A stretch of DNA of 36,600 bases from a virus (lineage: Duplodnaviria > Heunggongvirae > Uroviricota > Caudoviricetes), in the IMG/VR virus record IMGVR_UViG_2639762844_000004. One strand, given 5' to 3'. Made by a program: the position numbers. Shown in pieces: positions 30,001-33,000 of the stretch; position 1 is the stretch's first letter; every line of letters begins with the position of its first letter.

Positions 30001-33000
30001 CGACCTGAGCATCATCCAGCCAGAAACCTGCTTTAGTGAGTGCGTCAAAAGCGGCTTTTTGCAGATTATCCAGGTCACGGCGACGGCGATCCGGCATGTG
30101 GCACTCAATGCGGATTTTCACAGGCATAGCCAGGCCGATATCTAGCATTGCGTTTTTAATGATTCGGGCGACGTTATCGCGGTATGCCTGCCCCTCTGCG
30201 CTGATGTGCGTGCGTCCGCGATTATGCCGGTAGTAGCGGTTATTGCTCGGAGGCCAGGGTAATGTGATGCTGTAGGTATTCACGCCTTAATAACCCCCTC
30301 TTTCAGCCAGATAACCTGTGTTCTCGCCATACCTTCCAGCGCGCATTCTTTTGCATATGCAGCATCGACTTGCTTGGCATGCCCTTTACCGGCAATCTTC
30401 TGTATGCGCTAAACCTAGATAGAATCCACTCTGTGCACATTGAAGCCCGCTCTATGCTTCCTTTCAGGTATTGAAGGGATTGAGATGGGCTAAGCATTAT
30501 TGGCCTCCTGCATCAGGAGAAAGACAATCATGGCGGCGCGGAGAGGTCTGGTATGAAGTGGTCAACAAAAACTGGCCACCGAGTTAGAGTTTTTTCCAGT
30601 ATCGATTTTCCGATTCGTTTGGTGGTAACCCACCATTATATTCGTGCGGTCTTAGTGCGCTGTAATATCCAACGATATAGTCCGTTATTGCGTGAGCTGC
30701 ATCGCTGAAGCTTACATAGCCCGTCGCCGGCACCCATTCGTTCTTCAGACTCCTGAAGAAGCGCTCCATTGGGCTGTTATCCCAGCAGTTTCCACGCCGA
30801 CTCATACTCTGCCTGATCCGGTATCTCCACAGTAACTGCCGGAACTGCCTGCTCGTATAATGACTGCCTTGATCGCTGTGGAACATCACCCCGACGGGCT
30901 TACCACGGGTTTCCCATGCCATTTCCAGTGCTTTCATGGTAAGCCTGCTGTCCGGCGAGAACGACATGGCCCAGCCCACTGGTTTTCTTGCGAACAGGTC
31001 GAGAACAACGGCGAGGTACGCCCAGCGCTTACCCGTCCAGATATAGGTCACATCACCGCACCACACCTGATTTGGCTCGGTCACGGCGAACTGCCGTTCA
31101 AGGTAGTTAGGGATAGCAACATGTTCATGACCACCACGTTTATACCGGTAAGTCGGCTGCTGACAGCTGACCAGCCCCAGCTCTTTCATGAGTCTGCCAG
31201 CAAGCCAGCGCCCCATCTGGTAGCCTCTCTGGGTTGCCATTGTGGCGATGCTTCTTGCTCCGGCAGAGCCGTGGCTGATGCCATGCAGTTCAAGTACCTG
31301 GCTGCGTAATACAGCCCGTCTGCCGTCTGGCTTTTCAGGACGGTTTTTCCAGTATTTGTAGCTGCTGCGATGGACCCCGAACACATGGCAGAGAGTGGCC
31401 ACAGGATAACGCGCCCTGAGTTTCCCGATTATCGAGAACTGTTCAGGGAGTCTGACATCAAGAGCGCGGTAGCCTTTTTTAATATTTCATTTTCCATTTC
31501 AATACGTTGTAGCTTTTTCCTGAGCTCACGGATTTCAATTTGTTCCGGGGTAATGGGGGAGGCTTTTGGTGTTTTTCCCTGCCGCTCATCACGTAATTGT
31601 TTCACCCATCGCGTCATTGTGGAAAGGCCGACATCCATAGCGCTGGCTGCATCTGCCACGGTGTAATTCTGGTCAACGACCAGTTGAGCGGATTCGCGTT
31701 TAAACTCTGCGCTGAAATTTCTTTTTTTCATTATGGCACCTGTGTTGTTCTGAGGTGAGCATATCACCTCTGTTCAGGTGGCCAAATTCAGTAAACCACT
31801 TCAACTCGAGGCGTTTTTCGTTATGTATAAATAAGGAGCACACCATGCAATATGCCATTGCAGGGTGGCCTGTTGCTGGCTGCCCTTCCGAATCTTTACT
31901 TGAACGAATCACCCGTAAATTACGTGACGGATGGAAACGCCTTATCGACATACTTAATCAGCCAGGAGTCCCAAAAAATGGATCAAACACTTATGGCTAT
32001 CCAGACTAAATTCACTATCGCCACTTTTATTGGCGATGAAAAGATGTTTCGTGAGGCCGTCGACGCTTATAAAAAATGGATATTAATACTGAAACTGAGA
32101 TCAAGCAAAAGCATTCACTAACCCCCTTTCCTGTTTTCCTAATCAGCCCGGCATTTCGCGGGCGATATTTTCACAGCTATTTCAGGAGTTCAGCCATGAA
32201 CGCTTATTACATTCAGGATCGTCTTGAGGCTCAGAGCTGGACGCGTCACTACCAGCAGATCGCCCGTGAAGAGAAAGAGGCAGAACTGGCAGACGACATG
32301 GAAAAAGGTCTGCCCCAGCACCTGTTTGAATCACTCTGCATCGATCATTTACAACGCCACGGGGCCAGCAAAAAAGCCATTACCCGTGCGTTTGATGACG
32401 ATGTTGAGTTTCAGGAGCGCATGGCAGAACACATCCGGTACATGGTTGAAACCATTGCTCACCACCAGGTTGATATTGATTCAGAGGTATAAAACGGATG
32501 AGTACAGCACTCGCAACGCTGGCTGGGAAGCTGGCTGAACGCGTCGGCATGGATTCTGTCGACCCACAGGAACTGATCACCACTCTTCGCCAGACGGCAT
32601 TTAAAGGTGATGCCAGCGATGCGCAGTTCATCGCATTGCTGATCGTCGCCAACCAGTACGGCCTTAATCCGTGGACGAAAGAAATTTACGCCTTCCCTGA
32701 CAAGCAGAACGGCATCGTTCCGGTGGTGGGCGTTGATGGCTGGTCCCGCATCATCAATGAAAACCAGCAGTTTGATGGCATGGACTTTGAGCAGGACAAT
32801 GAATCCTGTACATGCCGGATTTACCGCAAGGACCGTAATCATCCGATCTGCGTTACCGAATGGATGGATGAATGCCGCCGCGAACCATTCAAAACCCGCG
32901 AAGGCAGAGAAATCACGGGGCCGTGGCAGTCGCATCCCAAACGGATGTTACGGCATAAAGCCATGATTCAGTGTGCCCGTCTGGCCTTCGGATTTGCTGG

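Follow-up and report, generated by a model that had tools for sequence, protein, structure and literature searches.

The stretch of DNA examined here (IMG/VR record IMGVR_UViG_2639762844_000004; 36,600 nucleotides, hereafter the window) is a lambda-like Escherichia coli prophage at the tRNA-Arg (DLP12) site. One complete copy of the insertion sequence (IS) ISEc52 stands in it between the nin region and cIII, and everything that lies between these two landmarks in phage lambda is absent. We consider it likely, at a probability of roughly 0.8, that joints made by ISEc52 deleted about 7.5 kb from a prophage like that of strain BEC1-S17-ESBL-07 (BEC1), leaving a single IS in place. This reading is carried by the lack of a target-site duplication around the IS, by the presence of the lost block in BEC1, and by sister prophages in which an identical IS lies at other deletion joints.

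The missing duplication and the intact relative

Simple insertion of an IS3-family element produces a target-site duplication of 3-4 bp. The original prediction held that the IS at 30554-31803 has none, and that its flanks, the nin region on one side and a point 41 bp upstream of cIII on the other, are unrelated. Both statements agree with the features of the two joints, in which the 3 bp outside the element are GTA on the left and ACT on the right.

30554..31803, minus strand: complete ISEc52 (IS3 family, IS911-like), 1,250 bp, 100% identical to annotated ISEc52 copies
30551..30553, plus strand: left joint triplet GTA, closing the ninX remnant; the empty site in BEC1, JNE170426 and F247 reads ggtctggta^tcaaat
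31804..31806, plus strand: right joint triplet ACT, 41 bp upstream of the cIII ATG (31845); empty site acgcttc^actcgagg in BEC1 and F247
30490..30553, minus strand: 3' remnant of ninX, 64 bp; coordinates transferred from the JNE170426 annotation, the left flank being 100% identical

The left flank of the IS thus consists of the last 64 bp of ninX, the remaining part of which is deleted. Eight other copies that do carry duplications fix the termini of the element at TGAAGTGG...CCACTTCA. Four of these are prophage copies, 99.5-100% identical and with the same ends, flanked by perfect 3-bp duplications (ATT in 100181, ATG in THO-006, ATG and ATT in ATCC 25922); the other four are chromosomal copies outside prophages, with the same termini and the duplications ATT, GTT, GTTG and GGC. 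Redefinition of the IS ends, by which the original prediction could have been overturned, is thereby ruled out, and shifting the ends of the window IS by 1-3 nt brings up no flanking repeat. As the element normally makes duplications of 3-4 bp and the window copy has none, the latter is not a simple insertion, family member though it is.

Sister prophages, 99.8-100% identical over 25 kb, were found by a search with the late region of the window. Among them, BEC1 (NZ_AP022295) carries the same prophage at the same tRNA-Arg (DLP12) site, with one mismatch in 5,555 bp of the left flank and none in 4,797 bp of the right. Between the window breakpoints BEC1 has full ninX, ninE, the gene of an N6-adenine methylase (dam), ninB, ren, P, O, cII, cro, a LexA-type repressor gene (cI), several small genes and the truncated sieB'. 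A distance of 8,722 bp separates the two empty sites in BEC1; phage DNA makes up 7,473 bp of it and an ISEc52 of BEC1's own the rest. The window therefore has one IS exactly at a novel joint whose flanks are non-contiguous in the intact relative. Because BEC1 keeps the nin-replication-immunity block between these breakpoints, the block was lost from a BEC1-like ancestor, with the IS exactly at the joint. The comparison of related strains which had been proposed as a check thus speaks for the earlier view that an adjacent deletion or inter-IS recombination removed the immunity region: BEC1 is intact between the breakpoints, and the other sisters have the IS at different joints.

The ISEc52 of BEC1 (locus L017, 1503-2751) is itself of some interest. 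It is 1,249 bp long and differs from the window copy solely by one A missing in the motif A AAA AAG. Loss of this base would put orfA and orfB into one frame, with OrfAB made constitutively and OrfA not at all, or the gap could be a homopolymer sequencing error; artificial orfA-orfB fusions have been reported to raise the rate of adjacent deletions (PMC11708052). The BEC1 copy also lacks a duplication (GAT-IS-CAT) and is oriented opposite to the window copy, and at this IS the 5' ends of sieB and ea10 are gone from the BEC1 prophage, together with ral.

Sister prophages and the placing of the joints

In the remaining sister prophages, with late regions 99.9-100% identical over 25 kb, an identical IS, in one orientation, is always found at a deletion joint, and the joints differ as follows.

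Window: GTA-IS-ACT; reference joint
JNE170426: CCT-IS-AGG; keeps 233 bp more of ninX, and lacks 5 bp (ACTCG) on the right side
PM22, Ec40743 and fECg99.1: ATA-IS-GTG; truncated quuD joined to the middle of DUF1382, with rusA...ninX and cIII...exo also gone

The presence of the same IS at differently placed joints implicates the IS rather than chance, and the series speaks for deletion by the IS, which was possibly repeated. The shortest path between the window and JNE170426 runs through a common ancestor of the form CCT-IS-ACT, followed by one more step in each line.

A resident IS, variable and possibly growing deletions and no duplication form the pattern that has been documented for IS150, likewise of the IS3 family, in the long-term evolution experiment (LTEE). 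All 14 of the 14 deletion-associated IS150 events there lacked a duplication, each began with an IS already resident, and the deletions, which ranged from 14 bp to tens of kb, often enlarged with time (PMC11708052). As in those deletions, the IS stays and adjacent DNA is lost in the JNE170426, window and PM22 series. The time series of the present case, unlike that of the LTEE, is drawn from natural sister strains, and both sides of the IS vary between strains.

The positions of the joints suggest sites chosen by a transposase and not random breaks. When the right joints of ten prophage-borne ISEc52 copies were mapped onto one IS-free reference (locus L006, reverse complement), eight of the ten fell into four pairs (9357/9369, 9545/9557, 9897/9902 and 12359/12378) whose members are 5-19 bp apart. 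These pairs cover three attachment sites (argU, torI and icd) in unrelated strains, and two of the four contain an ordinary insertion with a duplication. About 0.5 such pairs would be expected for ten random points in 3.4 kb (P about 0.002, a rough estimate that ignores shared ancestry). Further, the left flank of the window IS (30541-30554) has 12 nt, GAGGTCTGGTAT, in common with the target of an independent simple insertion of IS911 in TUM14759 (locus L018, NZ_CP128877). That insertion lies in the gene of a major facilitator superfamily transporter and has the duplication ATT; the shared 12 nt stand on the same side of the IS, at the right inverted repeat (IRR) end, with an offset of 2 nt. 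Many other top matches of the junction search also ran 7-19 nt into the flank, which may reflect target preference or the tail of best-match selection.

IS911 can target sequences that resemble its own inverted repeats, and the intact right target, CGCTTCA, resembles the IS tip CCACTTCA. Beside seven joints or hot spots, however, the best 12-nt matches to the IS ends reached 7-9 of 12, random positions of the same region having their mode at 7-8; insertion guided by inverted repeats was rejected, as the match is no better than background. Such targeting by IS911 is cited at second hand in PMC9333248 and PMC7986276.

Among the distinct junction types in prophage early regions, 8 of 12 lack a duplication. 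A wider proposal, which we regard as tentative and rather unlikely, is that ISEc52 has preferred sites in the lambdoid early-left operon (sieB-ral-ea10-cIII...DUF1382), from which it repeatedly strips the immunity and replication region, always toward cI, and so acts as a recurrent 'prophage-grounding' agent in E. coli. Of the leads, only the apparent clustering of joints in this operon is mildly novel.

Other prophages and elements met in these strains deserve brief mention. The second prophage of JNE170426 (locus L008, at 2.74 Mb on the torI side) and that of 23-AB02114 (locus L007) have an identical ISEc52 without duplication; ybgA is joined directly to ea10-cIII-kil-gam-bet-exo, the Q, nin, replication and immunity genes are missing, and the joints of the two strains differ on both sides. 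Gene conversion of the window from this torI-site prophage of JNE170426 found no support, its right flank being 99.0% identical to that of the window as against 100% for BEC1. In Ec40743 alone, the prophage at the tRNA-Arg site has an IS100 (istA/istB) inserted in its Rz-like lysis gene (locus L013, 2079-3880).

Routes to a single IS

The proposed history would start from a lambda-like prophage at the tRNA-Arg (DLP12) site, similar to BEC1 and with complete nin, O, P, cI, cro and cII. An active ISEc52 would then have made two transposase-mediated joints, one in ninX (ending in GGTCTGGTA) and one 41 bp upstream of cIII (beginning with ACTCGAGG). With the loss of about 7.5 kb of phage DNA between them, a single IS would be left with flanks from two target sites, and it is because the flanks derive from different target sites that no duplication would be seen. 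We infer the order of these events and their molecular route. The resident copy may have made the second joint in cis, either through strand transfer within the molecule, starting from an IS junction or dimer, or through a local hop followed by immediate collapse; alternatively, a second copy may have inserted in direct orientation, RecA then collapsing the interval. The intramolecular pathway through an IS junction or dimer has been described for IS30 and is cited for IS911, IS2, IS3 and IS150 (PMC9333248). We weakly favour erosion of the neighbourhood by a resident copy through adjacent deletion over one RecA exchange between two long-standing insertions.

Such an exchange, in which two independent ISEc52 insertions in direct orientation (GTA in ninX and ACT upstream of cIII, both flanked by a duplication of their own) recombined once, with loss of the interval and of one copy, is the most serious competitor, though we hold it to be somewhat less than an even chance. 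It predicts exactly GTA-IS-ACT, and the ample homology that it needs is at hand, all ISEc52 copies being identical. Two-copy states also exist: THO-006 has two direct ISEc52 copies 4.6 kb apart in one lambdoid prophage and ATCC 25922 has two inverted ones, which makes insertion of a second copy followed by RecA exchange feasible. The THO-006 copies (locus L009, 5001-6250 and 10833-12082) bracket ral'...ea22, one of them without a duplication and the other with ATG, and form a ready substrate for inter-IS deletion. A search of 5,426 complete E. coli genomes and of the contig collections, however, found neither of the parental junctions predicted by the exchange (24-mers ACGCTTCACT+TGAAGTGGTCAACA and ACCACTTCA+GTATCAAATATTGG). 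Further, the three joint pairs would call for six independent insertions in the same orientation and three exchanges; erosion by a resident copy is preferred because it accounts for three joint pairs in one orientation more cheaply.

Several points weigh against the history proposed here. Both routes give identical final products. No precursor was seen in the 5,426 genomes, whether as a simple insertion that duplicates ACT or GTA or as an intermediate of this prophage holding two copies, and exact-pattern scans for the precursor junctions were empty in IMG/VR viral contigs, GTDB species genomes and JGI metagenome contigs. The exact junctions of the window likewise had no match elsewhere in these four collections, with a search pattern that was validated on the window itself. 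Failure to find a precursor is no evidence that none existed, and analogous precursors do exist in other prophages (locus L006 and THO-006). The window and JNE170426 each retain DNA that is absent from the other; neither is thus the parent of the other, and extra steps or independent insertions are needed. The ISEc52 of BEC1, being oppositely oriented, is not the direct ancestor of the window copy.

The remaining explanations fare far worse. The IS could have been captured into a DNA break as a large deletion arose spontaneously, by one-step insertion without target cleavage (Ngan et al. 2024); this too would leave an IS in the middle of a deletion without a duplication (PMC11708052). The pairing of the joints and the 12-nt target shared with a genuine IS911 insertion argue against it: joints coincide with positions used by ordinary, duplication-bearing insertions, and at none of the eight joint types without a duplication is an IS tip damaged. 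We consider such capture very improbable. We give as little credit to an earlier deletion of the immunity region without any IS, into whose joint, or near it, ISEc52 later inserted and then lost its duplication. Deletions of this kind do occur in the same prophage family, F247 having dam' joined to the DNA beyond sieB through 8 bp of microhomology and W21 having dam' joined to 'exo. F247 is more distant from the window, however (97.5-97.8% identity, against 99.98-100% for BEC1), and was rejected as an ancestor, its deletion being an independent event; another 1.4 kb next to the IS, present in F247, is missing from the window, so that an IS-adjacent deletion would be needed regardless, and in every sister strain the IS sits exactly at the joint. 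Least credible of all is an assembly artefact in which two IS copies were collapsed into one and their flanks wrongly joined. ISEc52 is indeed multi-copy, a 2.6-kb query of the IS and its flanks matching eight places in JNE170426, but the window runs unbroken through the repeat and five independent complete genomes have the same kind of single-IS joint in this prophage.

The element, its surroundings and the fate of the prophage

The window element spans TGAAGTGGTC...AACCACTTCA, its start being TGAAGTGGTCAAC and its end AAACCACTTCA, and has the following parts.

30554..30589, plus strand: IRR, TGAAGTGGTCAACAAAAACTGGCCACC...; 25 of 36 positions match the other end; TG...CA tips
31768..31803, minus strand: left inverted repeat (IRL), reverse complement TGAAGTGGTTTACTGAATTTGGCCACC...
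31429..31731, minus strand: orfA, 100 aa, helix-turn-helix (Pfam HTH_Tnp_1, E = 6e-14; translation)
31474..31480, minus strand: A AAA AAG programmed -1 frameshift motif (simulated slip)
30584..31402, minus strand: orfB, DDE integrase core (NCBIfam transpos_IS3, 302.8 bits against a cut-off of 160; Pfam rve, E = 1e-31)

ISEc52 in the window is a complete IS3-family element. Its imperfect inverted repeats carry the tips TGAAGTGG and CCACTTCA in the arrangement 5'-TG...CA-3', a simulated -1 slip at A AAA AAG yields an uninterrupted 382-aa OrfAB, and both an N-terminal helix-turn-helix and a DDE (rve) core are present. Since OrfA, the slip site, the open OrfAB frame and the DDE domain are all intact, the element is probably active; its transposase runs on the minus strand, antisense to cIII.

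Full-length matches of 1,250 bp at 100% identity were obtained to the ISEc52 copies of JNE170426, 100181, 23-AB02114, PM22, Ec40743 and fECg99.1, and the name is that given to them in these six complete genomes by the NCBI Prokaryotic Genome Annotation Pipeline (PGAP). Identity to the copy in TUM14759 that PGAP names IS911 is 94.0%, with 74 mismatches and one gap in 1,250. Isoforms of an IS are set at ISfinder level at roughly 95% nucleotide identity. With IS911 and ISEc52, copy-out-paste-in elements of the IS3 family, the window element shares its length (1,250 bp), imperfect inverted repeats of about 36 bp with TG...CA tips, orfA and orfB with A AAA AAG, the 382-aa OrfAB and the helix-turn-helix and rve domains; simple insertions have 3-4 bp duplications, which the window copy lacks. 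The original prediction, which called the element IS911, was thus right as to the family and the likeness to IS911; near-identity to IS911 proper was not found, and IS911-like (ISEc52) names it correctly. In PGAP every ISEc52 transposase is marked as a 'frameshifted' pseudogene (for example in JNE170426, locus L001, 3897-5066), whereas the IS911 copy carries the annotation 'programmed frameshift'. The pseudogene label of ISEc52 is an annotation artefact, as the programmed -1 signal is undamaged and so are the two frames.

Around the IS, the late genes occupy the minus strand from 1 to about 27 kb, followed by these features.

28028-29125: nmpC-like porin
29315..30369, minus strand: retained late-regulatory side, with quuD 29315-29698, ylcG 29784-29924, rusA 29921-30283 and a DUF1364 fragment 30280-30369
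31845..33960, plus strand: retained pL-operon genes, with cIII 31845-32009, kil 31978-32121, gam 32196-32492, bet 32498-33283 and exo 33280-33960
35437..36600, plus strand: intD integrase, open frame (annotation in PM22 and BEC1)

The late genes, the Red recombination genes and the integrase are retained. The gene content suggests that, with cI, cro, cII, the pL and pR promoters, N and O/P lost, the prophage would be non-inducible and non-replicating. The genes from cIII to exo are kept without the pL promoter or N, and a search of 30300-32100 for a consensus sigma-70 promoter found none. An outward promoter from the IS into cIII was rejected on this result, and kil and the Red genes, with no consensus promoter separating cIII from the IS, are probably silent. 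The loss of its control and replication centre to one apparently active IS would explain why an otherwise well-preserved prophage should no longer be inducible.

Deletion by an IS that cripples a prophage is a well-known process, of which the window is a fresh instance. The defective DLP12-type prophage of E. coli K-12 shares with the window prophage its tRNA-Arg attachment site and gene set (intD...rusA, ylcG, quuD, an nmpC-like porin, essD and rrrD), the loss of the immunity and replication regions and the involvement of IS elements. Unlike DLP12, the window prophage keeps all its head and tail late genes together with the Red genes, its porin and integrase are intact, and it has another IS and other breakpoints. 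The near-identical strains form a natural series in which the same IS appears to erode the same prophage to different extents, mirroring IS150 in the LTEE. The value of the case lies in annotation and in the illustration of prophage decay; knowledge of IS3-family elements is left unchanged.

Members of the same prophage family have also lost the immunity region by other routes. Besides the IS-free joint of F247 (locus L002) and the joint of dam' to 'exo in W21 (locus L005), whose dam breakpoints are within a few bp of each other, an IS1A bridges ninX' and ea10 in 300081 (locus L003) and an IS5 bridges ninX and ea10 in LR-71-1 (locus L004). Recurrent loss by unrelated routes fits selection for hosts whose prophage no longer kills them.

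The intD gene has an open frame of 387 aa in the window, PM22 and BEC1 and is annotated with an internal stop in JNE170426 (locus L001, 8767 onward). The window therefore has another source than JNE170426, even though the flanks common to both show 0 mismatches. At the other end of the window, three tandem direct repeats of 132 nt (2784-3179; 100%, 77% and 63% identity to the reference copy) sit inside an open reading frame of 988 aa for a tail fibre (1580-4546, minus strand).

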